From Patescibacteria group bacterium (GTDB lineage Bacteria > Patescibacteriota > UBA1384 > XYA2-FULL-43-10 > 1-14-0-10-43-13): a stretch of 64,000 nt of DNA. The notes below the pieces were generated by a model. The model was not told the origin of the DNA. It saw only the letters and a program-made list of their open reading frames with translations, and did not search any database. The stretch covers positions 238,564 to 302,563 of the forward strand of contig JBAZNP010000001.1 in the NCBI GenBank assembly GCA_041649155.1, written 5' to 3'. A program made the translations under genes and the position numbers. Shown piece by piece: positions 2,006 to 46,590 of this stretch (position 1 is the stretch's first letter; every line of letters begins with the position of its first letter).

Positions 2006-2104
2006 TTTCCCTCCGAGTTCAAGAGTGTCAATCGTACTTTCGTCTATTAAATTTTAACACTATTTACCGTTAACCGCAAAATAAATATTCGCTCACCGTC
2101 CCTT

Positions 2105-2207: not shown

Positions 2208-2233
2208 TGGTGAATTAGTAAATACAGAGCTAT

Positions 2234-22231: not shown

Positions 22232-22256
22232 TACCTTTGCAAACTAGAATTAAGAT

Positions 22257-22982
22257 ATGAAACTAGAAGAACACCTTTCTTTTTTACTTAATGATAACTC
22301 GTTCAAAAAGATTATTTTTGATTTGAGAAAACAAGTAGGTATTTCAGAAGATGGCTTCAAAAAAGACGAGGATTTTAATTCCTGGAATGAAACTTATTCC
22401 GCTGATGCCCTGCAAAAAATAGTAAAAAGCCCAGGGACTATAATTGATGAAACATCACAAAAACTCATTCGCAGTTTAAGCGAGGCGGAAGACAAAAAAA
22501 TTGATAAGCGAAAACTTGATGCAATTGTTTCCAAAGTACTAAAAAAATATAAATTGCCAAGTGCTGCCAGTCAGAGCATATTAAGCTTCTTGATTTTCAA
22601 TAAAATTGAAGTAACCCCAGACAAGACCAAAAATTATAAAGCTTTTTTGTCTTATGAAGATGGTCAGTGGAATCTCTATTTGAAATTGTCAGGAATATGT
22701 CGAGCTGAAGACATCTCCTGGAAAAAAGACATTCGACCTTTGCAAAAGTTCCTGGCTGATTACACAGGCAGCTTACGACCATTAAAAGATGCGAGCGATT
22801 ATAAATTGATTACCTCTAAGAGAAACTCTAAAACAAAAAGGAAGTGGAAAGGGATTGCTTATAGCTCGTTGCCTGAAGAAATTAACTTAATTGATAGCAG
22901 CGAAAGTAAAGTTCTGGTCAATAAAAGAAAAAACCAACTCAAAGCGAAAAACGCTCGTTTAAGAAGGAAATTGAACACTTAA
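22257..22982 (+). CDS. Hypothetical basic protein
   Basis: 241 aa, Lys-rich, no motif recognised. Confidence 0.3.
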   Translation: MKLEEHLSFLLNDNSFKKIIFDLRKQVGISEDGFKKDEDFNSWNETYSADALQKIVKSPGTIIDETSQKLIRSLSEAEDKKIDKRKLDAIVSKVLKKYKLPSAASQSILSFLIFNKIEVTPDKTKNYKAFLSYEDGQWNLYLKLSGICRAEDISWKKDIRPLQKFLADYTGSLRPLKDASDYKLITSKRNSKTKRKWKGIAYSSLPEEINLIDSSESKVLVNKRKNQLKAKNARLRRKLNT

Positions 22983-23027
22983 AACCTCCGAAATAAACGT
23001 AACCTGGTAAATAGGTCTATTTTGTTA

Positions 23028-23049
23028 CGCTTAGCGTAGCGTTTTTTTA
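23028..23049 (+). terminator. Rho-independent terminator after the 22257..22982 gene
   Basis: Hairpin ACGCT-tagcgt-AGCGT followed by TTTTTTT. Confidence 0.5.
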
Positions 23050-23274
23050 ATTGAAAACACTTCAAGTCGCGGAGGTCCTGTCAGCTGGATTGCATTGCGA
23101 CTCAAAATAAGTTTGCAGGAGAACTGGCCCCATACGCAAAACCACACGGATACCTCATTCTCAGGCAGTCAGTAGTAAGTATTTAATCTTAATAACTTAA
23201 ATACCTACTGCCTAGAAAAGGAAACGGCTGGAAGGCGGAGGGAGGGTCTAATAGTAGGAATCTGGAGGTAATAA

Positions 23275-23454
23275 ATGAGTCAACAAATCGTCAAAAAGAC
23301 AAAGCAAATCAGAATCAGCACAGAGCTGCACAAGCTTTTGAAAGTCGAAGCGGCAGAAGCTGGTAAATCAATCAAAACCGTCCTGGAGGAGAAGCTGGAC
23401 TTTGTACCCCCTACCCCCACTTGCGAAGCAAGCGAAGAGGGTTCAGATGAGTAA
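23275..23454 (+). CDS. Ribbon-helix-helix (CopG/Arc-like) DNA-binding protein, 59 aa, not in ORF track
   Basis: MSQQIVKKTKQIRISTELHKLLKVEAAEAGKSIKTVLEEKL... has the beta-strand / helix / helix pattern of RHH regulators. Its stop overlaps the next ORF's start (ATGA). Confidence 0.55.
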   Translation: MSQQIVKKTKQIRISTELHKLLKVEAAEAGKSIKTVLEEKLDFVPPTPTCEASEEGSDE

Positions 23455-23818
23455 GTGCAGCTTTATCAAAAAAGACGGTAACAAGTGCAGAGCTAATGCA
23501 ATGCACGATTCAAAGCTTTGTTTTGTTCATAATCCAGAGTGCGAAACAGAAAGACAAAAAGCCATCGTTGACGGAGGCAAGCAAACCAGAAAGCCGAGAG
23601 TATCAACGGAGGCAATAACGCTTGAGAAGATTGAGGATATTCTACCCTTTCTTAACAAGCTCATCAACGAGGTCAGGCGTGGGGATTTAACTTCAAAATC
23701 GGCAAATGCAATCGGTTATTTAATTAACATCGCAATTGATGCCCTTAAACAAACGGACATCGAACGAAGATTAAAGGAGATAGAAAATGCAATCAAATTA
23801 CGAGAAAAAGAGCTTTGA
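23447..23818 (+). CDS. Hypothetical protein (element cargo)
   Basis: 124 aa counted from the ATG overlapping the RHH stop. N-terminal Cys/His cluster (CSFIKKDGNKCRANAMHDSKLCFVHNPEC) that could be a zinc-binding motif. Confidence 0.35.
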   Translation: MSKCSFIKKDGNKCRANAMHDSKLCFVHNPECETERQKAIVDGGKQTRKPRVSTEAITLEKIEDILPFLNKLINEVRRGDLTSKSANAIGYLINIAIDALKQTDIERRLKEIENAIKLREKEL

Positions 23819-24404
23819 GCTTTTTGACAAGCTGGACATTTACGAAAAGTACAAGGTGATGATGTCCGAAAAAAGCGTTGTGAATACCAGGACTTTGCGG
23901 TCCAGGTTATCAACGGAGGAAGAGCAACAATTTTGGCAGATTTTAGACGATAGCAAAAAGTTTGCTCAAAACCTCAAGGAGTTATTGCTGTTGTCCTTAC
24001 TCAGAAAAGACGTTATGCAGGATATTTTGAAACTGCACCTCAAGCTCGTCGAGGACCAACCATTCAGAAAAACCGATGATGAACTTTTGGAAATCGTTAG
24101 TCAAATAAAAGATTCTGGGGCGGAGCTGGATAAATTAAACAATCAAATGCTTGAACTAATCGAAGAGACGGAATCATTGCAGCAATCCCTGCACCGCCTG
24201 AATTATCCTATCGCTTTTACTCCTGAAATGAATCCAGAAAAGATACGAATACAAGCAGAATTGTTTAAGGGGCTAACCGACATCGAAAATCCACAAGTTT
24301 TTATTCAGCAAGCGAGAGCTTTGGAAGTTCGAGAAATGGTTCAAGGTAATGAGTTAAGAGAAAACTTTATCAATCAAATCAATAAATGGCTTGAGGTCAT
24401 TTAA
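23787..24404 (+). CDS. Hypothetical protein (element cargo)
   Basis: 205 aa, predicted helical / coiled-coil, no motif recognised. Confidence 0.3.
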   Translation: MQSNYEKKSFELFDKLDIYEKYKVMMSEKSVVNTRTLRSRLSTEEEQQFWQILDDSKKFAQNLKELLLLSLLRKDVMQDILKLHLKLVEDQPFRKTDDELLEIVSQIKDSGAELDKLNNQMLELIEETESLQQSLHRLNYPIAFTPEMNPEKIRIQAELFKGLTDIENPQVFIQQARALEVREMVQGNELRENFINQINKWLEVI

Positions 24405-24422
24405 GGAATTAAGAGTTTAGCA

Positions 24423-24602
24423 ATGAAGCGAGTAATGCCAATTAAAACCGAGTTCAAACTACTGGAAAACGACGAAACAAAGAGTCGTGTTCAGTTGGCA
24501 TATAATCGCATCTTTACCATTGCTAATCAGAATCTTATGAAGCAAGAAATGGCAAAAAGGCAAGCAAAAAAGAAAGGAGGTATTGACAGTAATGTACAGT
24601 AA
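24423..24602 (+). CDS. Small hypothetical protein, 59 aa, not in ORF track
   Basis: MKRVMPIKTEFKLLENDETKSRVQLAYNRIFTIANQNLMKQEMAKRQAKKKGGIDSNVQ. Position and size fit a phage-type small regulator. Confidence 0.3.
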   Translation: MKRVMPIKTEFKLLENDETKSRVQLAYNRIFTIANQNLMKQEMAKRQAKKKGGIDSNVQ

Positions 24603-24639
24603 AGTACAATAAGAGTACATAAACAAAGGAGAGCTGATT

Positions 24640-24813
24640 ATGGAAAAACAAGAAAATGAGTTCCTAACCGTTGAAGAAGTAGCTGAAAAATATCGAGTCG
24701 CTGTTGCTACAATCTACCGAATGGTTAGAAAAGGAGAAATCCCAGCCATCAAGTTTGGCAAAGTGTGGAGAATTAAAAAGAACGAACTGGAAGAAAAATT
24801 AAGCAATAAATAA
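24640..24813 (+). CDS. xis: Excisionase / AlpA-family helix-turn-helix protein (57 aa), not in ORF track
   Basis: MEKQENEFLTVEEVAEKYRVAVATIYRMVRKGEIPAIKFGKVWRIKKNELEEKL matches the excisionase-family HTH_17 pattern (LT..E.A..L.VS..TIYR....G..P..K.G..WR.....L). It lies directly upstream of the serine recombinase. Confidence 0.7.
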   Translation: MEKQENEFLTVEEVAEKYRVAVATIYRMVRKGEIPAIKFGKVWRIKKNELEEKLSNK

Positions 24814-24868
24814 AACAAAGCCAGAGTCCTAACGACGAATTAGAAGCACTCTGGCTAAGGAGGAGTCA

Positions 24869-26509
24869 ATGTCCCCAATTCATAATACAAAAGAGAGCGA
24901 AAGTTCTCAACCCCTCATTGCAGGAATGTACGCTCGTGTTTCGACAGGACGACAGGAGCAAGAGGAAACCATCGAATCACAACTCGATGAAATTAAATCA
25001 AAAATAGAAGAAGACGGAAACATCTTGCCAAGCGAGAACGTATTTGTTGACGATGGCTGGAGCGGCGAGATTTTCATTCGTCCAGAGCTTGATAAGCTCA
25101 GAGATGCCATCAGAGCAAAAACGTTTCAGGTGTTATATGTCTATGACCGAGGAAGAATTGCTCGAAAGTTCGCCTATCAAGAGATTGTTTTAGAAGAGTT
25201 AATCAACGCTGAAATACAATTCATCACATTGCACGACTCGCCAGGCAATACACCTGAAGAAAAAGTCCTACAAGCGATGCAGGGAGTTTTTGCGGAGTAT
25301 GAACGTATCAAGATTTATGAAAGATTTCGACGAGGTAAACTTTATAAGGCGAAAAGCAAGATTCTGATAAACGGTCATTCGCTTTATGGCTACAACTACA
25401 TTAAGAAAACCGAAGAAGTCCCAGCTCATTACGAAATCAACGAGGAAGAAACCAGAATAGTCCGAATGATATTTGAATGGGTTGGAGTCGAACAAATATC
25501 CTTACGAGAAGTTATAAGACGTTTGTATGACCTTGGAATACCGCCCAGAAAGCACAAGAGCGAGTTTTGGACCAAAGGCCCTATTGTTCGCCTTTTACAG
25601 TGCGAGGCGTACTCTAAGGGCAAAATCTACTATAATAAATCGGAGGCAGTAGTTCCGAAAAAGCCACTGAAGGATACCAAATACAGAAAAATCAAAAGAA
25701 GCAGTCGTAAAGTTCGGCCACGTGAAGAATGGTATGCTTTCGACGTTCCAACCATACTTGAAGATAATGGCCTATTTGAAAAAGTCCAGGAAATCCTTAG
25801 CTCCAATCAGAAATACGCCACCAAAAATCGAAAGTACGAGTACCTTTTGACCAGCAAAGTATATTGTACGTGTGGTAGCCCTCGTGCAGGTGATGGAAGC
25901 AATGCTGGTGGTCATCATTATTATCGTTGTGCTGAACGCATCTATAAGTTCCCAAAAGAGCACAAGTGCAAGCTTCCAGGCGTAAACGCAGAGGTACTAG
26001 ATAAAACGCTCTGGGATAATCTGCTAAAGTTTATGAGCAATCCAGTGCCGCTGCAGCAAGCTGCTGAAGAATATCTCAAGTTTGAAACCGAAAAGGGGTG
26101 TAATTCGGAACGTGAAGAAAAGCAGATTGCAGCTTACGTTGCCAAAATTCAAGAGGAAGAAAAACGCTACGCCAAAGCATACGGCACGGAAGCGATTGAC
26201 TTTGAAAGCTTCAAAGACCTGATGAAAGAGTGCAAGAAAAGGACGCAATCTTATACAAAGCAGCTCAAAGAGATTCAGAGTAAAAAAGAAGAGTCAAAAA
26301 TAAATCCGTCAAAGCTAAACCAGCTTTGCCAAGAAGCTCGAAAAGTGCTAGAATTACTAGATATAAGCAACAAAATACAGATAGTCAGAGATTTAATTGA
26401 TAAAGTAACGATAAAAGAAGATAGAAAGGTAGAGGTATTGGGTCATATACCCTTAATGCCCCTAAAGTTGGAATATGAACCTATCAGTCGGGATCGTCGG
26501 CCTCCCTAA
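24869..26509 (+). CDS. Large serine recombinase (serine integrase)
   Basis: N-terminal resolvase catalytic domain (YARVSTGRQ, catalytic Ser), a recombinase domain, then a zinc-ribbon-like Cys cluster (CTCGS...CAERIYKFPKEHKCKLPG) and a coiled-coil region. Confidence 0.9.
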   Translation: MSPIHNTKESESSQPLIAGMYARVSTGRQEQEETIESQLDEIKSKIEEDGNILPSENVFVDDGWSGEIFIRPELDKLRDAIRAKTFQVLYVYDRGRIARKFAYQEIVLEELINAEIQFITLHDSPGNTPEEKVLQAMQGVFAEYERIKIYERFRRGKLYKAKSKILINGHSLYGYNYIKKTEEVPAHYEINEEETRIVRMIFEWVGVEQISLREVIRRLYDLGIPPRKHKSEFWTKGPIVRLLQCEAYSKGKIYYNKSEAVVPKKPLKDTKYRKIKRSSRKVRPREEWYAFDVPTILEDNGLFEKVQEILSSNQKYATKNRKYEYLLTSKVYCTCGSPRAGDGSNAGGHHYYRCAERIYKFPKEHKCKLPGVNAEVLDKTLWDNLLKFMSNPVPLQQAAEEYLKFETEKGCNSEREEKQIAAYVAKIQEEEKRYAKAYGTEAIDFESFKDLMKECKKRTQSYTKQLKEIQSKKEESKINPSKLNQLCQEARKVLELLDISNKIQIVRDLIDKVTIKEDRKVEVLGHIPLMPLKLEYEPISRDRRPP

Positions 26510-27566
26510 CGTCGGCAAGTCAACATTATTTAACGCATTGGTCAAAGGTTCAAAGGCAGAAGCGGCTAATTATCCGTTCTGCACCATTGAGCCTAATGTT
26601 GGCATTGTAGAGGTTCCTGATGAGAGATTGGCTCCTTTAGTTGAAGTTTCCAAGTCAAAAAAGGTCGTTCCGACCGTAATTGAGTTTGTTGATATCGCCG
26701 GTTTGGTAAGAGGTGCATCGAAGGGAGAGGGATTGGGCAACCAGTTTCTTGCTCACATTCGCGAATGCGACGCTATCGCTATGGTTGTCCGCTTCTTTGA
26801 AGACGGAAATATCGCTCATGTCGATGGCAAAATTGATCCGCTTTCTGATATTGAAACAATTGAAACCGAGCTTCAGCTTGCCGACATTGCCACTGTTGAG
26901 AAAAGACAGTTTTCAGTCGAAAAAGAATTGAGATCGGGCTCGAAAGAGTCAAAATTCGCTCATTCAGGCCTTCAGAAAATCAAAGATGTTCTATATGACG
27001 GTAAAAATGCCCGAACAGCCAAGCTTGATGAGTTAGAAACAGAAGCCCTTAAAGGCTTGCAGTTAATGACACAAAAGCCAATTTTATATATTGCCAATGT
27101 TTCAGAAGACGAACTCGCCCATTTTGACGAGATAAAAGAAAGACCAGGATTTAAAAATATTGAATTATTACCCATCTCGGCACGAATTGAGAGTGAATTG
27201 AATGAACTAAATGAGCTGGAAAAGAAAGAATACCTTGAAGCTCTAGGTGTTAATGATACCGGACTTAACAACTTGATCAAAAAAGCATATGAAACGCTAG
27301 GATTAATCACCTACCTCACCTCAGGAGAGCAGGAAACCAGAGCTTGGACTATTAAAAAAGGCTTCAAAGCCCCCCAAGCTGCCGGAGTAATTCACACCGA
27401 TTTTGAAAAAGGCTTCATTGCCGCGGATGTGATCCCATGGCAAGATTTGTACGCTCAGGGAGGCTGGACCGGAGCTCGTGCCAAAGGCCTTGTTCGAACT
27501 GAAGGCAAGGAATATGTCGTTAAAGATGGCGACGTATGCTTGTTTAAATTTAATGTGAAAAAATAG
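26475..27566 (+). CDS. ychF: Ribosome-binding ATPase YchF
   Basis: G1 motif GIVGLPNVGKST, the NYPFCTIEPN segment, a TGS-like C-terminus. The first 35 nt overlap the 3' end of the recombinase gene. Confidence 0.9.
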   Translation: MNLSVGIVGLPNVGKSTLFNALVKGSKAEAANYPFCTIEPNVGIVEVPDERLAPLVEVSKSKKVVPTVIEFVDIAGLVRGASKGEGLGNQFLAHIRECDAIAMVVRFFEDGNIAHVDGKIDPLSDIETIETELQLADIATVEKRQFSVEKELRSGSKESKFAHSGLQKIKDVLYDGKNARTAKLDELETEALKGLQLMTQKPILYIANVSEDELAHFDEIKERPGFKNIELLPISARIESELNELNELEKKEYLEALGVNDTGLNNLIKKAYETLGLITYLTSGEQETRAWTIKKGFKAPQAAGVIHTDFEKGFIAADVIPWQDLYAQGGWTGARAKGLVRTEGKEYVVKDGDVCLFKFNVKK

Positions 27567-32465: not shown

Positions 32466-32584
32466 ATGTCATTTCGACTCCTCAGCCTTGTCTGAGGGTG
32501 GACCTGCCTGCCGGCAGGCAGGGAAATCTTAAAATAGATTATTATTTCTATTAGAAGATCCCTCCACGTTGGTCGGGATGACAC
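32466..32584. repeat. Family A palindromic element (reverse orientation) carrying the 20-bp palindrome CCTGCCTGCCGGCAGGCAGG
   Basis: Its reverse complement aligns almost base-for-base with 46450..46568, including TIRs TGTCATCCCGACC ... TCGAAATGACA. Confidence 0.85.
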
Positions 32585-32742: not shown

Positions 32743-33468
32743 ATGAGAGAATACGAACTTACGTATTTAATTTCTGATAATGTGCCTGAATCAGATTTAA
32801 ATAAGGTTACCGGTAAAGTCGGTGGCTATGTTACTAGTCTTAACGGAAAAATTTTAAAAGAAGAAATCTGGGGTAGAAGAAAACTAGCTTATCCTATTAA
32901 AAAACAGGATTTTGCTACTTACGTAACTTTGAATTTCAGCTTGCCTGCTGAAAAAGCAAACGAATTTGAACACAACATTTTTATGTCTTCAAAAATAATT
33001 CGTCACCTAATGATTGTTCAAGATTACGGATCAGAAGAGTTAACTTTGACCAAAGAGGATGTTGCTGAAACAGAAGAAATTACCAAAGTAATTGGCGGTG
33101 AAAAATCATTTGAGGCCGTTATCGGAGAAACAGAGGAAAGCAAAGATTTAATGGCAGTTCGCGGGGACGAAGTAGAGACAGAAGAACCTAAAAAAGAAAC
33201 CAAGAAAGAAAAAACTCCAGAAAAAACAGAACTTGAAGAGGAAGTTGAAGACGCCGCATCCACCGAAGGTGGAGCAGGCGCCCCTGCTTCCACTGAAAGT
33301 GGAATGCGGGGAGAACCTAAAAAAGCTGCAAAAACAACGAAGAAAGCTGAAACTCCTAAAAAACCAGCCAAGACAGCTAAAAAAGCAGAGAAAAAGCCAG
33401 AAGATGAAGCAGACAGACTGTCTAAACTAGACAAAGAACTGGACGATATTCTTGGCGATGACCTGTAA
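32743..33468 (+). CDS. rpsF: 30S ribosomal protein S6 with a long low-complexity Lys/Glu-rich C-terminal extension
   Basis: MREYELTYLISDNV...IWGRRKLAYPIKK is a canonical S6 N-terminal domain. Start at 32743, not the upstream ATG of the track ORF. It is followed by ssb and rpsR as in the conserved operon. Confidence 0.85.
   Translation: MREYELTYLISDNVPESDLNKVTGKVGGYVTSLNGKILKEEIWGRRKLAYPIKKQDFATYVTLNFSLPAEKANEFEHNIFMSSKIIRHLMIVQDYGSEELTLTKEDVAETEEITKVIGGEKSFEAVIGETEESKDLMAVRGDEVETEEPKKETKKEKTPEKTELEEEVEDAASTEGGAGAPASTESGMRGEPKKAAKTTKKAETPKKPAKTAKKAEKKPEDEADRLSKLDKELDDILGDDL
33250..33311. repeat. Family E palindromic element inside the rpsF coding sequence
   Basis: gacgccgcatccaccgaaggtggagcaggcgcccctgcttcc...ggaatgcgggg matches 40199..40255 in pyrG. 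The first hairpin, tccacc/ggtgga here versus tccgc/gcgga in pyrG, is kept by compensatory changes. It encodes DAASTEGGAGAPAS..GMRG. Confidence 0.8.
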
Positions 33469-33556
33469 AACCAGAATCATGAATATAGAATCAAGAATCA
33501 TGGGATTGATTAAAGTGCTATAATATTCTTAATTCATAATTCTAATCAAAAGGAGC
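33466..33556. repeat. Family C palindromic element, second copy
   Basis: agaatcatgaatatagaatcaagaatcatgg ... attcataattc matches the reverse complement of 6956..7032. Confidence 0.75.
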
Positions 33557-33559
33557 AAA

Positions 33560-34033
33560 ATGTTAAATTTAAACAGAGCACAAATCTTGGGCAACCTAAC
33601 ACGTGATCCCGAGATGAGATATACACCAAATGGTCAGGCAGTTTCTAGTTTTACCGTTGCAACAAACAGGAAATGGAAGGGACGGGACGGAGCTCCGGAT
33701 GGCGAAGACACTCAATATCACGACATCGTAGTTTGGGGCAAACAGGCTGAAGCAATTACCCCAATGTTAAAAAAAGGCTCTCCGGCTTTCGTTGAAGGAA
33801 GACTTCAAACAAGAAACTGGGAAGGTCAGGACGGAGTAAAAAGATACAAGACTGAAATTATCGCCGACAACATAATTGTGTTGAGCAGCAGAAGTGGTGA
33901 CAATAGTAACTTCATGGCCCGATCACAAAGTAATCCTGTTGACGACATTTCAAACTCATCAACTAGCACAGACAAAAAAACCAATACCCCACCCGCTGAA
34001 GATGAGATCGACATAGAAGAAATACCTTTTTAA
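33560..34033 (+). CDS. ssb: Single-stranded DNA-binding protein
   Basis: OB-fold N-terminus (ILGNLTRDPEMRYTPNG), a disordered linker, and an acidic C-terminal tip DIDIEEIPF. Confidence 0.9.
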   Translation: MLNLNRAQILGNLTRDPEMRYTPNGQAVSSFTVATNRKWKGRDGAPDGEDTQYHDIVVWGKQAEAITPMLKKGSPAFVEGRLQTRNWEGQDGVKRYKTEIIADNIIVLSSRSGDNSNFMARSQSNPVDDISNSSTSTDKKTNTPPAEDEIDIEEIPF

Positions 34034-34035
34034 AA

Positions 34036-34150
34036 TTATTAATAATTTTAAAAAGAATATTCAAGATACAAGAAACAATAAACAAATAAATCACAATATT
34101 CAATAATCAAATTTCAAATATACTTGTATTTTGTTACTTGGAACTTGGTT
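34036..34150. repeat. Family D palindromic element (CAAGATACAAGAAACAA ... TTGTATCTTG arms)
   Basis: Shares acaagaaacaat..caaa..aa...caatattcaataa and inverted arms with 43575..43716. Confidence 0.7.
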
Positions 34151-34170
34151 ATTGCGACTGAAAGGAGCCC

Positions 34171-34395
34171 ATGGCTTATCAAACAATTAGAACAAGCAAA
34201 AAATGTCTATTCTGCAAAACAAAATTAGAAGCTATAGACTACAAAGATGTTAATACTTTATCCAAGTATTTAAATCGTTGGAATAAAATAGACTCAGGTG
34301 CTAGATCTGGCAATTGCACTAAACACCAGCGAGAGCTAACCAGAGCAGTAAAAAGGGCAAGACACTTAGCTTTGCTTCCTTTTACAGTACGGTAA
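34171..34395 (+). CDS. rpsR: 30S ribosomal protein S18
   Basis: 74 aa with a CLFC zinc-type motif and the conserved [19 protein letters not shown]-terminus. Confidence 0.9.
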
Positions 34396-34528
34396 TAAAT
34401 AATTACAAAATCCTAATTCCAAATTACAAACAAAATTTCAAATGTCTAATGTCAAAGTTTTGAATTTTTTAATTTAATATTTGGGATTTGATTAGAAATT
34501 AGTCATTAGAAATTAGGAATTTATTACT

Positions 34529-35086
34529 ATGTTATCAATCACCAACCTAAAAAACGGCACAAAGATCACTCTCACCGGAGAACCTTATGTGGTTTTGTCT
34601 TATTACCATTCCAAAATGGGACGAGGCGGAGCCGTGGTTAAAACAAAATTGAAAAATTTGAAAACCGGCGGAGTAATAGATAAAACTTTTCAGGGAGCAG
34701 ATAAAGTTGAGGAGGCAAATTTAACTAAAAGAAACGCAACTTATCTTTATTCTGATGAAAATAGTTCATACTTCATGGACACAGAAAGTTATGATCAGTT
34801 TGAAATCTCTCTGGAAAAAGTCGGCGATGATAAAAAGTATTTAGTTGAAAACTCCAGTGTTGATCTCCTCTACTTCAACAATGAACCTATAAACATAGAG
34901 CTACCGATTAAAATGACTTTCAAAGTAGTTAGTGCTCCTCCTGCAGTTAAGGGAAATTCTGCCGGCTCAGTAACCAAAAAAGTAACTATCGAAACCGGAA
35001 CTCAAGTGGATGCTCCACTTTTTATCAAAGAAAATGATAAAATAGTAGTAGACACAAGAAGCGGCTCTTACGTTGAACGTGCATAA
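34529..35086 (+). CDS. efp: Elongation factor P
   Basis: 185 aa. KPGKG-equivalent loop (SKMGRGGAVVKTKLKNL) and three OB domains. Confidence 0.9.
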   Translation: MLSITNLKNGTKITLTGEPYVVLSYYHSKMGRGGAVVKTKLKNLKTGGVIDKTFQGADKVEEANLTKRNATYLYSDENSSYFMDTESYDQFEISLEKVGDDKKYLVENSSVDLLYFNNEPINIELPIKMTFKVVSAPPAVKGNSAGSVTKKVTIETGTQVDAPLFIKENDKIVVDTRSGSYVERA

Positions 35087-35138
35087 CCACTCTGATTTTA
35101 AACACAGATAGACGCTGATAGCTCTACCACTAAAATCT

Positions 35139-35696
35139 GTGATGATCAGTGAAAAAATCAGTGAGATAATTTCAATACAATTTATGATTTTTCCCTACAC
35201 AAAAATAGTTAAACTCGAGGTTTTTGATCTAAAAAATCAAAGAGGAGTTGGCGCTGTCAAAGAAATCATAATTCAAAAAAAAGACTTTAAAATCTCCGGA
35301 ATAATCTTGGAAAATTCGTTTTTAGATCGTGGCATCAAGATTGTAAATAGCACCGATATTGTTGATATCTCTCCGGAAGGAGTTGTGATAAACGATAGCG
35401 ACTCGATTTCCAGCCCAAAAGAAAACGTTAGACTAGCGGAAGCAATAAAAGATGGCTTATATGGAATTGGTCAAAAAGTTGTGACCAAAGATGGCAAATC
35501 TTTAGGCAGAGTAAATGATTTATTTGTCTCTACTGAAACTTTAATGATCTCCAAAATCTTCATAAAAAATATCTTCTCAGAAAGAGTTATCCCTTCATCA
35601 GCAATTGTTGAAATTAAGGGCAAAAAGATAATAGTTAAAAATAATTTTGAAACAGTCAGAGTTTCCGTACCCGAGATTAGCGCCAGCGTTGTATAG
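35139..35696 (+). CDS. PRC-barrel domain protein (two repeats)
   Basis: Two segments (e.g. LKNQRGVGAVKEIIIQKKDFKISGIIL and GQKVVTKDGKSLGRVNDLFVSTETLMISKIFI) resemble PRC-barrel / RimM-type barrels. Confidence 0.4.
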   Translation: MMISEKISEIISIQFMIFPYTKIVKLEVFDLKNQRGVGAVKEIIIQKKDFKISGIILENSFLDRGIKIVNSTDIVDISPEGVVINDSDSISSPKENVRLAEAIKDGLYGIGQKVVTKDGKSLGRVNDLFVSTETLMISKIFIKNIFSERVIPSSAIVEIKGKKIIVKNNFETVRVSVPEISASVV

Positions 35697-35700
35697 ATAG

Positions 35701-35803
35701 CAGAATACAGATATCAGATAACAGTTATATGAAAACAATATGTAAAAAATCCCGCCACTATGCGGGATTTTTTACTATCAAATTTCTGTTATCTGTATTG
35801 CTG
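35701..35803. repeat. Family F inverted repeat (CAGAATACAGATATCAGATAACAG / CTGTTATCTGTATTGCTG) around a bidirectional terminator
   Basis: The arms flank AAAAAATCCCGCCACTATGCGGGATTTTTT (35745..35774), a perfect hairpin with A-run and T-run between the convergent PRC-barrel and groEL genes. The motif cagaatacagatatcag recurs inside the GT2 gene at 59383..59414. Confidence 0.7.
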
Positions 35804-35822
35804 TCAACTGTTAGCTATTTTA

Positions 35823-37472
<1,650 letters not shown>

Positions 37473-37545
37473 CTAATAGCTAATTTAACTAATTAAGCTA
37501 ATACAATGAATTGGTTTTATTCGCTGCATTAGTCATTCGTCCTGA

Positions 37546-37821
37546 TTACAAAATTCCAAGTATCTCTTCTTCTCTCATCACTTTATATTCGACGCCTTCA
37601 ATCTTTAACTCTTCGCCTGAATATTTGCCAAATAGAACTTTGTCGCCTTTTTTAACTGAAAACTCGTATTTTTTACCCTCTTTTATACCACTGCCCAATG
37701 CGATAATTTCTCCTTCAGCTCTCTCTTCCTGAGCTGACGCTGGGATAATAATTCCGGATTTAGTTGTTTCTTCTTTTTGGACCGGCTGGACCAAGACTCT
37801 ATCTCCTAGTGGTTGAAACAT
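37546..37821 (-). CDS. groES: Co-chaperonin GroES
   Basis: True start is the internal ATG at 37821 (MFQPLGDRVLVQP...) with an AGGAAGG SD. The 22 upstream codons of the track ORF run into the palindromic repeat and are not coding. Confidence 0.9.
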   Translation of the reverse strand: MFQPLGDRVLVQPVQKEETTKSGIIIPASAQEERAEGEIIALGSGIKEGKKYEFSVKKGDKVLFGKYSGEELKIEGVEYKVMREEEILGIL

Positions 37822-37846
37822 AATGCCTTCCTTTCTACATACACAG

Positions 37847-37866
37847 ATCTCGTACACCTGCCTGCC
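37847..37866. repeat. 20-bp perfect palindrome CCTGCCTGCCGGCAGGCAGG in the groES 5' leader
   Basis: Identical to the cores inside the family A copies at 32503..32522 and 46512..46531. It is nested in a larger inverted repeat (cacagatc ... gatctgcacag) between the groES promoter and the start codon. Confidence 0.8.
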
Positions 37867-37925
37867 GGCAGGCAGGCTGATCTGCACAGATAATTTTATA
37901 TAATTTTTAAACTCAATTTTACTGA

Positions 37926-37955
37926 TATATAAGCGATTGTAAAGTATACTTTACT
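37926..37955 (-). promoter_or_regulatory. Sigma70-like promoter candidate for groES-groEL (TTGACA-N18-TACAAT on minus strand)
   Basis: The minus strand reads ttgacaaaaaagtaaagtatactttacaat about 100 nt upstream of the groES ATG. No CIRCE (TTAGCACTC-N9-GAGTGCTAA) is present. Confidence 0.4.
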
Positions 37956-38174
37956 TTTTTGTCAAGAGTCGATACTACATCGGCTCGCAGACCCCCGACA
38001 AAGCGACACCATGATGCATGGACGTAGACCATGAGAATGGAGAAGCGAAGTGGGGTCACTACCGATAACAAGGGATAAAACAAAAAAAAGAGGATTTCCC
38101 TCTCAACGCTCCCCCTAAATTTAATATGTTCCCGTGATCATCAGTAGTTATCAGTGTAATAGATCAGCGTAGTT

Positions 38175-38217
38175 AAAAAGGTGGCGGTAGTGCAAGGGGG
38201 GCACACTACCACCAACC
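38175..38217 (-). terminator. Rho-independent terminator of the nucleotidyltransferase gene
   Basis: GC-rich hairpin GGTTGGTGGTAGTGTGCCCCCCTTGCACTACCGCCACC followed by TTTTT on the minus strand. Confidence 0.65.
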
Positions 38218-38245
38218 TCAATATAGCGCAACTTAAGCTCAAAAG

Positions 38246-38938
38246 TCAAGATGATTTTGGTGGATGGAAACGAAGTTCTCGATCGTTGTAAACAATCAGA
38301 TCTGGGTATTTTTTAGTCCTCGGATCGCTTTCTATTTTTTTGATCTGATATGATTTTAATAGTTTTTCAAGCCGATTACTAATAATTGATGTCATTTCGA
38401 ACAGAGTGAGAAATCTCCTGTTCTGCTTGCGATAGGATCTCTCGCTTTGCTTAACCCACCTCGCCGGTGGACTCGCAAAGTGTCGAGATGACAATTTTTG
38501 TTTACAATTATATTTTTCAAACAGTTCTTCGTTGGCTCTTAAAAACTCCTCGAATAATCCCCCGTCTCCTGCAATAAACTTGCTGGCACTATAATTCTCC
38601 GCACAGTATTTATCAATTTTTTCTCCCCGACCAGTTGGAATTTTTAGATAACTCTCCGTTAAGAAATAATTGAAACAAAATTTACCGGCATGGCCTTTTG
38701 ACTCATCCTTTGATCTTTTTATGCCAAATAATAATGCGAAAATATTTATAAAAAATCTAGCCGTAAAAATACGACCGTCTTTGGCAATAATCAAGATATC
38801 AATATCAGAGCTCTTCTTGGATTTGCCTTGTGCCAACGAACCATTTAATATCACGCAACGCACAAAAGGCAGTCGGGCGATTGTTCGGCCAATAATTTTT
38901 GCTTGGGATAATCTTTTGTTCAGTAATTCTTTCTTCAT
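38246..38938 (-). CDS. Nucleotidyltransferase-domain protein (Pol-beta-like minimal NTase)
   Basis: N-terminal GS...DxD signature (ILNGSLAQGKSKKSSDIDILIIAK). Confidence 0.55.
   Translation of the reverse strand: MKKELLNKRLSQAKIIGRTIARLPFVRCVILNGSLAQGKSKKSSDIDILIIAKDGRIFTARFFINIFALLFGIKRSKDESKGHAGKFCFNYFLTESYLKIPTGRGEKIDKYCAENYSASKFIAGDGGLFEEFLRANEELFEKYNCKQKLSSRHFASPPARWVKQSERSYRKQNRRFLTLFEMTSIISNRLEKLLKSYQIKKIESDPRTKKYPDLIVYNDRELRFHPPKSS
38390..38494. repeat. Family A-type element (TGTCATTTCGA ... TCGAGATGACAA) inside the nucleotidyltransferase CDS, frame kept
   Basis: 105 bp (35 codons) bounded by the family A TIRs. It encodes ...SPPARWVKQSERSYRKQNRRFLTLFEM... within the C-terminal part of the protein. 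Confidence 0.7.
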
Positions 38939-39181
38939 CGCCTCAAATTTCTAAGCTCTAATTTTTAATTTCAAATAATTTAGACTTTTATTCGTTATTT
39001 GTAATTTGGATTTTGTCATTTGATAAGTTGTCCCCAACTTTTTTAATTGTAACAGAAAATATGGGTGTGCTATCATATAGTTAAAATAAAATATCGTTAA
39101 AAAAAACTCCAACTGAATAAAAAACCTAGGAGTTTTTTAAATTGTTCTAATTATAATCATAAGTTCTATTTCGGAGGAAAA

Positions 39182-40885
39182 ATGAGTTCAAAATACATCT
39201 TTGTTGTTGGCGGTGTAATGTCTTCTGTCGGTAAAGGAATCGCTTCTGCATCAATTGGAACGATCTTAAAAAGTAAGGGCTATAAAGTTACAGCAATTAA
39301 AGCCGATCCTTATATAAATGTTGATGCCGGCACCATGAACCCGACTGAACACGGAGAAGTTTTTGTAACAAAAGACGGCGATGAATGCGATCAGGACATG
39401 GGAAATTATGAAAGATTTCTAGACGAAAGCCTGACCAAGATAAATTACATGACAACCGGCCGAATCTACCAGTCTGTTATTAACAAAGAAAGAAATCTTG
39501 ATTATAAAGGCAAATGCGTTGAAGTTGTGCCTCACATTCCGGAAGAAATAATTAATCGGATTAAAACAGCGAGCAAGAATGCCAAAGCTGATATCACTAT
39601 TATTGAAATTGGCGGGACAATCGGTGAATATCAAAATCTCCTTTTCCTTGAGGCAGCCAGAATGATGAAACAGGAAAATCCTGAAGATGTAATATTCATT
39701 CTAGTTTCATATCTACCAATCCCCTCAAAAGTCGGGGAGATGAAAACAAAACCAACCCAAATGGCTTCACGCGAATTAAATTCTTGCGGAATTCAGACAG
39801 ATTTTATCTTCTGTCGTTCCGAGCGCCCGATTGACCAAAAACGAAGAGAAAAGCTGGCAACATTCTGCGGAATTAAACCGGAAAATGCCATTTCTGCTCC
39901 AGACGAAGATTCAATCTACGACATCCCTGTAAATTTTGAGAATGAAAATCTGGGCGAAAAGATACTAAAACAATTAAGGTTAGAACCCAAACAAACCGAT
40001 CTGGTTGGCTGGCGCAAAATGGTGAAAGAGGCTAAAGAAGCAAAAGGAAGCGTAAAAATAGGTATTGTCGGTAAATATTTTGACACAGGCGATTTTGTTC
40101 TCGCTGATTCATATATTTCAGTTATTGAAGCCGTAAAACATGCTAGTTGGAAAGAAGGTTTGAAACCAGAACTAGTTTGGCTTTCTTCTGACAAATATGA
40201 TGCCGCATCCGCTAAAAGCGGAGCAGGCACCCCTGCTTCCGTAGGAATGCGGGGGAAAAGTAAGAAAAATTTAGAAGAATTAAAACAGTATGACGGTATC
40301 ATAATTCCAGGGGGATTTGGTTCTCGTGGAATTGAAGGGAAAATCGCTGTCGCAGGTTTTTGTCGAGAAAACATGATCCCGTATTTCGGTCTATGTTACG
40401 GCATGCAAATTGCCACTATTGATTTTGCCAGAAATGTCTGCGGTTTAAAAAAAGCCAATTCTCAAGAACTTGACCCCAAAACTCCTCATCCTGTTATTCA
40501 TATAATGTCCGATCAGAAGAAGAAATTGGAAGAAAAAGATTTTGGTGGATCAATGAGATTGGGATCTTATGATTGTAAGCTAGTTAAAAACACCCTGTCA
40601 TATAGGGCTTATTCCAATTTAAAAAAATCTATATCAGGAGAGCCGCCTTTAATTTCTGAGCGCCATCGACATCGTTATGAATTTAACAATGAGTATAAAG
40701 ACCTAATTACTAAAAAAGGCCTGAAAATAGCAGGTCTTAATCCGGAGAGAAAATTGGTTGAAATAATTGAAATCCCAAATCACCCGTTCTTTGTCGGAGT
40801 ACAATTCCATCCGGAATTCCAGTCACGACCAGGACGACCACATCCACTGTTTTTAGAGTTCATTAGAGCAGCCAGAAAGAAATAA
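39182..40885 (+). CDS. pyrG: CTP synthase
   Basis: N-terminal synthetase domain (VVGGVMSSVGKGIASAS), C-terminal glutamine amidotransferase with GLCYGMQ and HPEF. Confidence 0.95.
   Translation: MSSKYIFVVGGVMSSVGKGIASASIGTILKSKGYKVTAIKADPYINVDAGTMNPTEHGEVFVTKDGDECDQDMGNYERFLDESLTKINYMTTGRIYQSVINKERNLDYKGKCVEVVPHIPEEIINRIKTASKNAKADITIIEIGGTIGEYQNLLFLEAARMMKQENPEDVIFILVSYLPIPSKVGEMKTKPTQMASRELNSCGIQTDFIFCRSERPIDQKRREKLATFCGIKPENAISAPDEDSIYDIPVNFENENLGEKILKQLRLEPKQTDLVGWRKMVKEAKEAKGSVKIGIVGKYFDTGDFVLADSYISVIEAVKHASWKEGLKPELVWLSSDKYDAASAKSGAGTPASVGMRGKSKKNLEELKQYDGIIIPGGFGSRGIEGKIAVAGFCRENMIPYFGLCYGMQIATIDFARNVCGLKKANSQELDPKTPHPVIHIMSDQKKKLEEKDFGGSMRLGSYDCKLVKNTLSYRAYSNLKKSISGEPPLISERHRHRYEFNNEYKDLITKKGLKIAGLNPERKLVEIIEIPNHPFFVGVQFHPEFQSRPGRPHPLFLEFIRAARKK
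40199..40255. repeat. Family E palindromic element inside the pyrG coding sequence
   Basis: gatgccgcatccgctaaaagcggagcaggcacccctgcttccgtaggaatgcggggg adds about 20 residues (AASAKSGAGTPASVGMRGKS) in the linker before the GATase domain, compared with E. coli PyrG. It is homologous to 33250..33311. Confidence 0.8.
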
Positions 40886-43716: not shown

Positions 43717-45600
43717 TTAAGTCGCTGGCACTACTGGCACTACTGGCGCAGGAGTAGCTTCTGGCGTTGGCGCTGGTGCTGGCGCTGGCGCTGGCGCGGC
43801 TTTACCCACTAACCACTTTTCCTGCCACGGTACATATTTAGATACAAAATCTTTTTCTTGGAGAATATCGCTTCCGCGAGTTACCTTATAATGAAATGTT
43901 GCTGTCGCTCCTGGATGAGCACTGTCAATCTTCTTTTTCTCACCTGGCGCCAAAGTATCAGTTTCTGTATAAAGAGGTGGATCAGGTTGAGTAACGTTCG
44001 TTACTACTGGTTCAGATACCTCGGAAGTTCTTCCATCTTTAGTGCCATAGATATCAAAGGTAATTTTCGTTCCGACAACTTTTGATTGAATTAAAACATA
44101 TTTTCCGTAATTATTAACAAATTTAAAATCAGGCGCAGGATCATAGATGGTTGCATCCATACCAACTGGAGGTTCGTAATAACTTACCCTATATTTATGG
44201 TTTTGTCTCTCGGTTATTTTCATGCCTGCATTGAGGGCAGCTCTGAATAAAGTCGATGAAACCTGACACAGTCCACCGCCAAACTCGGGAATGGTTTTAT
44301 TTTCCTTAATCACCAGCTCTTCCAAGTATCCGCTTGAAGCATCAATAGTTCCAAGTTGCTTGAGAGTTGAAAAAGTCTCATCAGGTTTTAGAAGAACACC
44401 GTTAATTGCCGCTGCGCCAATCTGAATATTATGAACCCTATTCGAGGACGAACCAACAAAGTTAGTTGTTGCTGTTCCCACCAGCTCAACAATTCCCAAA
44501 TCACTGATTTTCTGTTCCGAAACTTCCGGTTCTTTTAATGCCACCTTTAAAGTTATTGCTGCAAAATCAGGATTGACTTCTTTTGAATCCATACGTAATT
44601 TTATATTATTTTCAATATCAATTTTTGTCTGTGCTCTGTCCAGTGTTCTACCGGTTATCGATGTCTCAACAACCGTTGCCATACCATCAGATATGGTTAA
44701 TTTCGCATTTTTAGCTTCAACATCAATACTCTTTCCAATGGAGTCGATAAAAGATTTTATACGATCGTCATTTAGTACAATTTCTAAGTCATCACCGTTT
44801 GATTTTGATTTCACAAAGCCACCGATCGTATCATCATCAGCTTTAAATTCCTGATTATCATATTTCAAAATCAAATCGCCTTGTTCGATAATTTTATTAG
44901 CCTTGGCAAGAGCTGCCATAGCTTTATCTTTATCAACCTGAGGTTTAAAATTTTCAGTTTTAAATGATGTTTTCGCAATTTTAAAATCACCAATCTGAGA
45001 TTCAATATCATTAATTATTTCCGCCTGATCAATTCTGTGACCCTCTTTTCGATCTTCTGATAATTTAAATTTACCGTCGCCGTAAACCAATAAATAGTCT
45101 TTTTCTGGATCATCAAGCTCGATAGCAATATTTTTAACTTTTAACGTCAGTCCCTCTAAATTTAGAGAGTAAATAGCCTCATGATCAGTACCAGCAAACA
45201 CTGATTTTAATTGCTCAAGAAAAGATTTAAAAGTCCCCTTGCTTCTTCCTTGTCCCCAAACTTCATCAACTGTAGCTTTAACGTCATATTGAAGTCCTAT
45301 TTCAGAAGGATCAATGACATAAATTTTCTCATCAGAGTTATCATTCTGATATTTTAATTCAATCTTAGCGCCCCCAACTTCTTTTGACTTATCCTCTATT
45401 ATTCTTTGAATTTCTTCTTTGGTTTTGCCACTAAAATTTATTTCACCTATATATTGATGAGCATAAACTTTTTTTGAGAAAGCCAAAGAATATATTCCAA
45501 AAGCAATAAGAAAAACGATAACCAACCCAGAAAAACCAAGCAGGCATATCTTGGCGTATTTTTTAGCTTTTGGGCTTTTAAATATTTTTACTTTTTTCAT
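43717..45600 (-). CDS. VanW-family protein with N-terminal membrane anchor and C-terminal Pro/Ala-rich tail
   Basis: VanW-domain motif GGGLCQVSSTLFRAALNAG. The tail (A/P)n is encoded by the GC-rich microsatellite at 43717..43800. Confidence 0.7.
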   Translation of the reverse strand: MKKVKIFKSPKAKKYAKICLLGFSGLVIVFLIAFGIYSLAFSKKVYAHQYIGEINFSGKTKEEIQRIIEDKSKEVGGAKIELKYQNDNSDEKIYVIDPSEIGLQYDVKATVDEVWGQGRSKGTFKSFLEQLKSVFAGTDHEAIYSLNLEGLTLKVKNIAIELDDPEKDYLLVYGDGKFKLSEDRKEGHRIDQAEIINDIESQIGDFKIAKTSFKTENFKPQVDKDKAMAALAKANKIIEQGDLILKYDNQEFKADDDTIGGFVKSKSNGDDLEIVLNDDRIKSFIDSIGKSIDVEAKNAKLTISDGMATVVETSITGRTLDRAQTKIDIENNIKLRMDSKEVNPDFAAITLKVALKEPEVSEQKISDLGIVELVGTATTNFVGSSSNRVHNIQIGAAAINGVLLKPDETFSTLKQLGTIDASSGYLEELVIKENKTIPEFGGGLCQVSSTLFRAALNAGMKITERQNHKYRVSYYEPPVGMDATIYDPAPDFKFVNNYGKYVLIQSKVVGTKITFDIYGTKDGRTSEVSEPVVTNVTQPDPPLYTETDTLAPGEKKKIDSAHPGATATFHYKVTRGSDILQEKDFVSKYVPWQEKWLVGKAAPAPAPAPAPTPEATPAPVVPVVPAT

Positions 45601-45672: not shown

Positions 45673-45694
45673 GCGTCCCGATTAATCGGGACGC
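45673..45694 (-). terminator. Hairpin terminator downstream of the PEP-CTERM gene
   Basis: Perfect stem GCGTCCCGAT-ta-ATCGGGACGC with a T-rich minus-strand downstream flank. Confidence 0.45.
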
Positions 45695-45708
45695 CCTGTT
45701 ATGAGCCG

Positions 45709-46290
45709 CTAAGCGGCTCGTCTGTGGAGGAGGAGTCCCCCCAGACCGCTCAGGCCGAGTCCTATGGCAAGTAAAGAACTCGGTTCCGGAACGACTGATG
45801 AATTAAAGTCAACTGTGAAGTCGAAATTACCGCCCATATAGAGGTTTGTTGAATCCCACTCTAGCGGGAGATAGAAACTATTGCTAAAACCGTTCTGAAA
45901 AAAAGTGATCTTTGGTTCAACCATTGGAGGATCCCATGGTCCGCCAGTACTACAATCGATGTAACCGAACAACACATCATAATCGCAAGGATTATCGCAC
46001 AGGATTGAGCCATAAAAGACCCAGTTTCCGGTAAAATCCCGAATATCACAGGCTAGACCATTTCCCAACACAATGTGAACATTGGAATCAGCGTTATAGT
46101 TATTGTTCCACTCAGCGGTTCTGGGTTCCCATGAAAAGCCCATGGTGACAGACTCCCACTGATCAGATCCTTCTTCACTAACCCAGATACCCAAGCCAAA
46201 GTCGGTCTCGCTAGCCAACGCCATCGTTTCAATGACGCCCGCAAGCGTTATGGCAAATAATATTACAGCTGCCATTGTAAACTTACGCAT
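45709..46290 (-). CDS. PEP-CTERM-anchored secreted protein
   Basis: The C-terminus VVPEPSSLLAIGLGLSGLGGLLLHRRAA is a textbook PEP-CTERM sorting signal (PEP, then a TM helix, then an Arg cluster). Likely start at 46290 (MRKFTMAAVILFAITLAGV, a signal peptide). GC is about 49%, against about 35% around it. Confidence 0.65.
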   Translation of the reverse strand: MRKFTMAAVILFAITLAGVIETMALASETDFGLGIWVSEEGSDQWESVTMGFSWEPRTAEWNNNYNADSNVHIVLGNGLACDIRDFTGNWVFYGSILCDNPCDYDVLFGYIDCSTGGPWDPPMVEPKITFFQNGFSNSFYLPLEWDSTNLYMGGNFDFTVDFNSSVVPEPSSLLAIGLGLSGLGGLLLHRRAA

Positions 46291-46449
46291 TACCCTATAT
46301 TCCCCCTCAAAACCAGCATTACGCCATATCGACGTTTGATTCAAAATAACAAAAATAATATTAAAAAATGATTAAGGAAAGATTAAATATTTATTAAGGC
46401 GTTCGTTTTTTTATCTGTAAATTAAAAGTAGTTACTTACCTACCCCTTG

Positions 46450-46568
46450 TGTCATCCCGACCAGAGTGGAGGGATCTTCTGATAGTAATCAGAATTTATT
46501 TTTAAGATTTCCCTGCCTGCCGGCAGGCAGGTCCGTCCTCAGACAAGGCTGAGGAGTCGAAATGACAA
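46450..46568. repeat. Family A palindromic element carrying the 20-bp palindrome CCTGCCTGCCGGCAGGCAGG
   Basis: TIRs TGTCATCCCGACC ... TCGAAATGACAA. Near-identical to the reverse complement of 32466..32584. Confidence 0.85.
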
Positions 46569-46590
46569 TTGCGAGTAAGCGGTTATATTT

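Follow-up and report, generated by a model that had tools for sequence, protein, structure and literature searches.

Short GC-rich double-hairpin repeats, probably mobile, within conserved genes of a low-GC Patescibacteria lineage

We analyzed a 64,000-nucleotide (nt) stretch from the metagenome-assembled genome of a Patescibacteria group bacterium (contig JBAZNP010000001.1, positions 238,564 to 302,563), referred to here as the window, in which the genes for ribosomal protein S6 (rpsF) and CTP synthase (pyrG) each carry, in frame, one copy of a short element that folds into two adjacent hairpins. Our data indicate that these two stretches, which a preliminary description made from the sequence alone had placed at 33250 and 40199 and regarded as homologous, are indeed copies of one repeat. 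The core of the element, GGAGCAGGCRCCCCTGCTTCC, is found at exactly two places in the window (33271-33291 and 40220-40240), even when three mismatches are permitted, and 17 further copies were found elsewhere. The core is absent from 100 of 100 dinucleotide-preserving shuffles of the window, and the terminal blocks of the element, GCCGCATCC and GGAATGCGGGG, have exact matches in the window at both copies only. The element has a GC content of 61-72% while that of the window is 38%. Both copies fold into unusually stable structures, with energies of -38.8 kcal/mol (z = -6.4) for copy 1 and -34.3 kcal/mol (z = -4.9) for copy 2, and none of 200 shuffles was equally stable in either case.

Both inserts leave the long open reading frame (ORF) of their host intact and add approximately 20 residues, as had been proposed, with measured lengths of 20 amino acids (aa) in S6 and 18 aa in PyrG. 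Copy 1 supplies the last base of an Asp codon, then AASTEGGAGAPASTESGMR, then the first two bases of a Gly codon, and lies in the Lys/Glu-rich, low-complexity C-terminal tail of S6, outside the S6 domain, where it was first described. Copy 2 adds AASAKSGAGTPASVGMRG to PyrG and converts an ancestral Glu codon to Asp. The PyrG copy had been assigned to the linker that precedes the glutamine amidotransferase (GATase) domain; we found it instead inside the Pfam GATase domain, in a loop. The inserted residues form a gap when PyrG is aligned to the CTP synthase of PDB 3nva. The AlphaFold model of PyrG has a mean predicted local distance difference test score (pLDDT) of 84, whereas residues 342-359, between a strand (327-335) and a helix (360-369), score below 50. 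The PyrG peptide is therefore predicted from this model to be a disordered surface loop.

Table 1. The two element copies in the window, their hairpins, and their host genes (positions are those of the window).
Feature	Position	Strand	Description	Basis
Element copy 1	33252..33311	+	60 nt, 20 aa; C-terminal tail of S6	covariance model, 77 bits
Hairpin A, copy 1	33252..33280	+	C-GCCGC-(A)-TCCACC GAA GGTGGA-GC-(A)-GGC-G	minimum-free-energy fold, RNAalifold consensus, covariation of pair 1-29 and tip pairs
Hairpin B, copy 1	33281..33311	+	CCCC-(T)-GC-TTCCACT GAA AGTGGAA-(T)-GCGGGG	single fold and RNAalifold
Element copy 2	40201..40254	+	54 nt, 18 aa; inside PyrG	covariance model, 83 bits
Hairpin A, copy 2	40201..40229	+	T-GCCGC-(A)-TCCGCT AAA AGCGGA-GC-(A)-GGC-A	single fold, covariation, RNAalifold
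Hairpin B, copy 2, short form	40230..40254	+	CCCC-(T)-GC-TTCC GTA GGAA-(T)-GCGGGG	single fold and RNAalifold
rpsF (ribosomal protein S6, 241 aa, protein P0121)	32743..33468 (ORF start alternatively 32707)	+	S6 domain, residues 4-91	Pfam
pyrG (CTP synthase, 567 aa, protein P0001)	39182..40885	+	GATase domain, residues 307-562; element, residues 341-358	Pfam

The preliminary description recognized a palindromic first hairpin, TCCACC-GAA-GGTGGA in rpsF and TCCGCT-AAA-AGCGGA in pyrG. The first hairpins are present as described, and what follows them is no loose tail: a second long hairpin adjoins the first. Aligning the copies revealed four invariant blocks, GCCGCATCC, GGAGCAGGC, CCCCTGCTTCC, and GGAATGCGGGG, with two variable tips between them. 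RNAalifold, single-sequence folds, and pair counts concur on two adjacent imperfect hairpins of approximately 12 bp each, with the consensus Y-GCCGC(A)TCC-tip-GGA-GC(A)GGC-R for hairpin A and CCCC(T)GC-TTCC-tip-GGAA(T)GCGGGG for hairpin B. The stems are invariant across copies, and the tips vary yet stay complementary; cells of the alignment assigned to pairs are complementary in 98.7% of cases and sliding the partners lowers this to 37-49%. Hairpin A closes with a C-G pair (pair 1-29) in 11 copies and with a T-A pair in 8, and none of the 19 has it broken. The first base (C or T) is assigned to the element on account of its covariation with the central purine.

Tip pairs have changed on both sides (A-T, G-C, and C-G). 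The tip of hairpin A consists of a codon, a loop codon (GAA or AAA), and the reverse complement of the first codon, and the codon pairs found are ACC/GGT, GCT/AGC, GCC/GGC, ACT/AGT, and CGC/GCG. The amino acids encoded by the tip shift accordingly (T..G, A..S, A..G, T..S, and R..A) with pairing kept, which argues against selection on the peptide. Compensatory substitutions that keep the pairing while the peptide changes, which had been proposed from the two window copies, are thus borne out by the tip pairs, pair 1-29, and the RNAalifold consensus. A further change is found in the copy of locus L024, where the outermost pair of hairpin B is T..A instead of C..G. A cloverleaf (four-way) fold accounts for the invariant stems just as well, yet in it positions 1 and 29, which covary perfectly, have no partner, and we prefer the two-hairpin fold for this reason. 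The inverted termini, YGCCGCAT at the 5' end and ATGCGGGG at the 3' end, share six perfectly complementary bases (CCGCAT with ATGCGG) with imperfect outer bases, and the two hairpin units are also able to pair with each other.

From GCC to GGGG the copies measure 53, 59, 65, or 71 nt, or 54, 60, 66, or 72 nt with the leading Y, a step of 6 being compatible with stem symmetry and with the reading frame alike. One 87-nt variant was found, in the C-terminal copy of the ribosomal protein S1 gene of locus L017 (L017 127-212; also L018 818-903). It contains 27 extra nt, CCCACAAAAGGGGCCCCTCGGTGGGGC, between CCCCTGC and TTCC, which form two more small GC hairpins and keep the frame; the element seems able to gain hairpin modules. 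Locus L009, a 1.7-kb contig, contains two copies (1057-1121 and 1509-1575) that lie 450 nt apart, one with a T-A and the other with a C-G closing pair, both with a long hairpin-A tip. The second of these is 67 nt long, which is not a multiple of 3, and the frame changes inside the element, in the C-terminal tail of an RNHCP-domain protein. As this copy lies beyond the last domain of its host, the frame change is harmless.

A metagenome collection was scanned for exact matches to a 20-nt core, which returned 15 low-GC (35-45%) contigs, every one with a true copy and all with unrelated flanks. Relaxing the search brought in a variant copy in L007 and the second, longer copy in L017, and an exhaustive search of representative proteins with a two-sequence profile added one new copy, in P0123, a 62-residue Cys-rich protein of locus L024. 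The 19 distinct copies analyzed here are the 2 of the window and 17 in loci L005-L019 and L024, with L018 duplicating L017. Based on Pfam, the ribosomal hosts are S6 (2 copies), S1 (3 copies in two orthologues), S5, S15, L1, L24, and probably L15 (a weak match), and ribosomal-protein genes host 10 of the 19 copies. The other hosts are RpoC, PyrG, a GNAT acetyltransferase, an MshEN-domain protein, the RNHCP protein, and the C-terminal end of a membrane protein, while two unknown proteins (L005 and L015) and the small Cys-rich protein have no family. Copies in unrelated genes are nearly identical in nucleotides, including at synonymous sites. Since copies are present in independent assemblies (NCBI, ENA, JGI, and Logan), an assembly artefact is excluded.

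Other searches returned few matches. Within the approximately 290 kb of sequence scanned with the covariance model, there were no further or divergent copies. Among contigs of the genome collection, the 20-nt core found only two chance matches, in GC-rich Oscillospiraceae and Paenarthrobacter; either the species is unrepresented there or its representative lacks the exact core. The viral contig collection contained no match to the same core. Rfam returned nothing at gathering score over the whole window; scanned permissively, the rpsF copy matched a miRNA, spuriously (E = 4.7), and nothing else, and neither search matched a ribozyme or intron family. S6 itself was all that a concatenated six-frame peptide query found, short matches being unable to pass the E-value limit. 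A padded profile of 16 insert peptides matched nothing in the database, though it scored approximately 50 bits on P0001 and P0121 locally, which we attribute to the word index. The density of approximately 2 copies per 84 kb read around the window suggests roughly 20 copies per 0.8-Mb genome, a figure that is an extrapolation and not a count.

Comparison with relatives indicates that the copies are precise, lineage-specific insertions, as the preliminary description had supposed. In an alignment of the 120 best PyrG proteins, the window protein alone reads ..YD-AASAKSGAGTPASVGMRG-K.., while the other 119, at 65-88% identity, are without the 18 residues and read ..YE|K..; the nearest named homologues are from Candidatus Berkelbacteria, at approximately 70% identity. 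In DNA alignments, a single clean gap of 54 nt separates TATGA from AAAAGT in pyrG of relatives L003 and L004, and the gene is without the element in L003, L004, L027, and L028 alike. The covariance model found no copy anywhere in the sequences of these four syntenic relatives. The S6 proteins of the syntenic relatives L003 and L028 are without the 20 residues, and the S6 protein of relative L019, which is 78% identical, contains an element copy at another site of the tail, directly after ..DLMSVRSEK. Two separate sites of the S6 tail are thus occupied in two related lineages. No target-site duplication was found at pyrG, where comparison of the empty site, TATGA|RAAAAGT, with the filled site gives a clean 54-nt addition, and the 19 flank pairs compared have no common repeat flanking the element (neither a target-site duplication nor AG/TAG repeats). 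A 2-nt duplication of 'GA' was rejected as it would need a 56-nt, frame-breaking addition at pyrG.

These data bear on the scenario in which the inserts are an ancestral low-complexity Ala/Gly/Ser/Pro stretch common to orthologues, or a chance or convergent similarity, and no repeat element exists. The peptide is low in complexity, and so is the S6 tail itself. The orthologues are without the stretch, however, and the 17 more copies, the near identity of nucleotides in unrelated genes at synonymous sites included, the failure of any window shuffle to reproduce the core, and the clear palindromy and covariation all speak against this scenario, to which we give almost no credence.

The preliminary description proposed counting copies in coding sequence versus intergenic DNA. 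We found that all 19, in the window and the metagenomes together, lie in ORFs, on the sense strand of the longest ORF and with the same start phase (GCC GCA TCC, encoding Ala Ala Ser), and that none of the 19 is intergenic or in an RNA gene. The frame is kept in 18 of 19 copies, which are a multiple of 3 in length and contain no stop codon in the host frame, so that the host protein gains 18-24 small residues with the pattern D/N-AAS-x3-GAG-x-PAS-x1-3-GMRG. The element enters between the second and third base of a NAN codon, usually GAR (Glu) but also AAR, and the flank consensus is A-(A/T)-G-A | element | A-R-A-A. The neighboring codons carry A at position 2, as is typical of hydrophilic residues, and the segments entered are hydrophilic, Lys/Glu-rich, or loops. 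The copies in S1, S5, S6, S15, L1, L15, and the membrane protein are terminal or in tails, the copy in the MshEN protein is between domains, and those in RpoC and L24 are in lineage-specific loops. Most other frames of the element are also free of stop codons, including an antisense frame, PRIPSEAGAPAPPSVDAAS, so that an open frame alone is insufficient to explain the bias. As regards insertion specific to one replication strand as a possible cause of the orientation bias, genes of the window point both ways and its GC skew tracks the direction of the genes.

The length rule and the open frame argue, as far as sequence can indicate, for translation of the element. By analogy with the 'byp' elements of Magnusiomyces mitochondria, the element might instead go untranslated, being cut from the mRNA or bypassed by the ribosome. 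A GC-rich hairpin that interrupts coding sequence in an AT-rich genome would suit such an element, as would the constant use of the sense strand, which a process at the RNA level requires, and yeast mitochondrial GC clusters and byps offer an analogy (PMC8811140). Neither a length that is a multiple of 3 nor a stop-free frame would be needed in a sequence that is skipped or removed, yet 18 of 19 copies have both; tip lengths step by 6, preserving pairing and frame, and no ribozyme or intron family in Rfam matches the element. We therefore regard an untranslated element as very improbable.

The S1 genes of L016 and L017, which are probably orthologous, provide a measure of constraint at the nucleotide level. 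In both, the element lies close to the N-terminus, with a 3' junction that is homologous. Third codon positions of the two genes are 39% identical outside the element (155/402) and 95% identical inside it (19/20), while 4 of 20 first positions inside the element differ, and the two copies differ by a double change at pair 1-29. To account for the 95% inside the element, either gene conversion, recurrent insertion at the site, or a function for the host is needed. Orthology of the two copies would mean that selection, or conversion by other copies, keeps the element constant as nucleic acid; independent origin would make the site a hotspot.

We considered whether the element is a module useful to the host, either as an mRNA structure in highly expressed genes (for pausing, stability, or regulator binding) or as a peptide tag or linker (AAS..GAG.PAS..GMRG), that is copied around and kept by selection. 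The restriction of all 19 copies to the sense strand and one frame with none intergenic, the ribosomal hosts of 10 of 19 copies along with RpoC, the invariance of the stems in every copy, the S1 third positions, and the compensatory changes, one of them at pair 1-29 between two S1 copies, would be expected of such a module. Close relatives, however, are without the element in the same genes, its position within one protein varies by lineage (the S6 tail), and it occupies disordered tails and loops rather than fixed functional positions. The peptide also varies just where the DNA must remain complementary, hosts such as the GNAT protein, the membrane-protein tail, the RNHCP protein, and the 62-residue Cys-rich protein have no evident common function, and no Rfam family matches. 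We consider a host-useful module unlikely.

A related proposal is that exclusivity for one strand and one phase is a property of the mechanism of insertion or maintenance, which would depend on transcription or translation, or that the element has been recruited as an RNA or peptide module of the translation apparatus. Entry between codon bases 2 and 3 in 19 of 19 copies, the lack of intergenic copies, and the synonymous sites kept in probably orthologous copies are the grounds for this proposal, which we hold to be decidedly unlikely. Taken together, host function or a phase-specific mechanism retains the standing of a minor contender.

A second, unrelated family of GC-rich palindromes was found in the window (2104-2212, 7353-7437, 32474-32533, 37846-37894, and 46447-46569). 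Its outer arms read ATTGTCATTTCGACTCC ... GATCCCTCGACTA(C/A)GCTCGGGATGACAAC, with modular inner hairpins (TCAGCCTTGTCTGAGG; CCTGCCTGCCGGCAGGCAGG). This family is mostly intergenic, including partial copies just upstream of rpsF and groES, which indicates that intergenic DNA is not closed to hairpin elements in this genome. Its 84-nt copy at 7353-7437 lies in frame inside a 5'-3' exonuclease gene (ORF 7033-8130, minus strand) and adds IVISTPQPCLRAEKSSNKRSLDYARDDN.

The reading that we favor, with a probability of approximately 0.7, is that the element belongs to a family of very short, GC-rich, non-autonomous mobile elements, similar to Rickettsia palindromic elements (RPEs), that reside in protein-coding sequence in a lineage of low-GC Patescibacteria. 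The preliminary description spoke of selfish DNA; the mobile-like behavior stands, based only on presence or absence among relatives and on differing insertion sites, while selfishness itself we infer. We hypothesize that the double hairpin with its invariant stems, as single-stranded DNA, cruciform, or RNA, would be recognized by a mobilizing or recombination activity acting in trans, and that repeated insertion or gene conversion would keep the copies alike. Exclusive use of the sense strand and one frame may result from a preference for purine-rich targets (A-W-G-A | A-R-A-A) together with purifying selection, which would remove copies that give a harmful peptide or strike structured parts of a protein. 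The element would be translated and would be neutral or slightly harmful to its host rather than useful.

Several observations weigh against a mobile family of this kind. Random insertion followed by selection predicts many intergenic copies and 0 of 19 were seen, although the second hairpin family is mostly intergenic in the same window. No copy uses the antisense frame PRIPSEAGAPAPPSVDAAS, although this frame lacks stop codons and would seem harmless. The target motif occurs in the window in sense phase 0 in only approximately 35-43% of cases, with approximately 25% antisense and 5% intergenic, so that target preference alone does not give 19 of 19, and target preference combined with selection is still only a fair fit. 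Identity of 95% at third positions exceeds what is expected of a decaying immobile insert, as the other third positions of S1 look saturated. Since the copies were collected through exact matches to a 20-nt core, old or divergent ones are missing from what is a small sample. In the window and its flanks (approximately 84 kb), a search for a mobilizing enzyme found no HUH, RAYT, IS200, or DDE gene, only a serine recombinase island and no transposase, and no RAYT or insertion sequence (IS) gene was seen near any copy. Neither a target-site duplication nor an excision footprint was seen, and transposition itself is thus not demonstrated.

The serine recombinase belongs to a probable integrated element at approximately 22200-26510. 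In this element, a large serine recombinase (Resolvase and Zn_ribbon_recom, 24869-26509) is accompanied by small neighboring genes that match HTH_17 and Omega_Repress and by several genes without a family. Other GC-rich repeats were noted. Inside a PG_binding_4/VanW gene (ORF 43717-45600, minus strand), a run of GCTGGCGCTGGCGC-type repeats (65% GC; 43734-43830) resembles a coding repeat rich in Ala, Pro, and Ser more than it does a hairpin element. GC-rich hairpins (GAGCCGCTAAGCGGCTC and others) cluster at 45687-45777, at the 3' end of ORF 45709-46344 (minus strand), whose 211-aa product has no Pfam family. Outside the window, the proteins P0122 and P0124, which the two-sequence profile matched, consist of repeated RSTKAGAGTPAT, LNEGRGRNPGDT, and AQRRPGPEPRRH units, and we take them for a single GC-rich DNA repeat that a gene caller translated in three different frames, unrelated to the element.

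A full-text literature search found no description of such an element in Patescibacteria (Candidate Phyla Radiation), in agreement with the preliminary description, which named no equivalent for this kind of genome; this does not imply that none has been described. To date, Rickettsia has supplied the best-documented in-frame palindromic elements, and the family described here would extend the phenomenon to Patescibacteria. It offers a cleaner case for study given its size of 54-72 nt, a two-hairpin fold backed by covariation, a length rule of 54 plus multiples of 6, and a strict strand and frame bias. Through the element, ribosomal proteins, RpoC, and PyrG come to differ in length and sequence between close relatives, which bears on annotation, on marker-gene phylogenies, and on structural work on the ribosomes of these bacteria. 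The absence from intergenic DNA, the single frame, and the kept synonymous sites make the family a tractable case for how DNA elements colonize essential genes.

The closest known systems are the RPEs, above all RPE-1 to RPE-3 (Ogata et al. 2000, 2002). In the articles that summarize that work, RPEs are 100-150 bp long (PMC2229807, PMC3767692), are modeled as one long stem-loop, and occur also in intergenic DNA and in RNA genes (transfer-messenger RNA and RNase P RNA; PMC2229807, PMC10969869, PMC3767692). The preliminary description had called the element RPE-like, and in behavior this is apt. In both cases a repeated palindrome of a small AT-rich genome lies in frame in unrelated, often conserved housekeeping genes, it adds a family-specific peptide to solvent-exposed parts of the host protein (pLDDT below 50 in PyrG), and no transposase is known. 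The families are nonetheless distinct. An RPE is two to three times as long as the element (100-150 bp, compared to 54-72 nt with one 87-nt variant), and the element forms two hairpins instead of one stem. Its copies are confined to ORFs, one strand, and one frame (19/19), whereas RPEs are also intergenic and in RNA genes; its stems are invariant, orthologous copies keep their synonymous positions, and its host belongs to Patescibacteria instead of Rickettsiales. The element is not known to resemble any RPE in sequence, and Rfam contains no RPE model.

Yeast mitochondrial GC clusters include optional in-frame clusters in the ribosomal-protein gene var1 (PMC8811140). Similar to the element, GC clusters and byps are short GC-rich palindromic clusters of a very AT-rich genome that can enter a ribosomal-protein gene in frame and vary the size of the protein. 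The loops of GC clusters change fastest and the clusters merge and shuffle, which is comparable to the 27 nt of extra hairpins in the C-terminal L017 copy. Yeast clusters, however, are mostly intergenic and have AG/TAG flanks read as target duplications, neither of which is seen for the element, and byps are skipped in translation and free of frame (PMC8811140), whereas element copies keep the frame in 18 of 19 cases. Repetitive extragenic palindromic (REP) sequences and REPINs, which are mobilized by RAYTs (PMC3733652), resemble the element as short non-autonomous hairpin repeats, in its imperfect inverted termini (YGCCGCAT ... ATGCGGGG), and in doublet pairing. REPs differ in being extragenic with a GTAG or CGTC tag, while the element lies inside ORFs and an alignment of 17 copies contains no conserved GTAG or CGTC tetranucleotide. 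Bacterial MITEs (transposable elements of the miniature inverted-repeat type) can be fused in frame to ORFs, such as the 107-bp form of Correia, ERIC, and RU-3 (PMC2229807). The element shares imperfect terminal inverted repeats with MITEs, some forms of which have open frames inside genes; MITEs are usually 100-400 bp, have TA or other target duplications, and are mainly intergenic, whereas the element has no duplication. Judged by these features, the element belongs neither to the RPEs nor to the yeast GC clusters and byps, and it has no REP tag and no target duplication.

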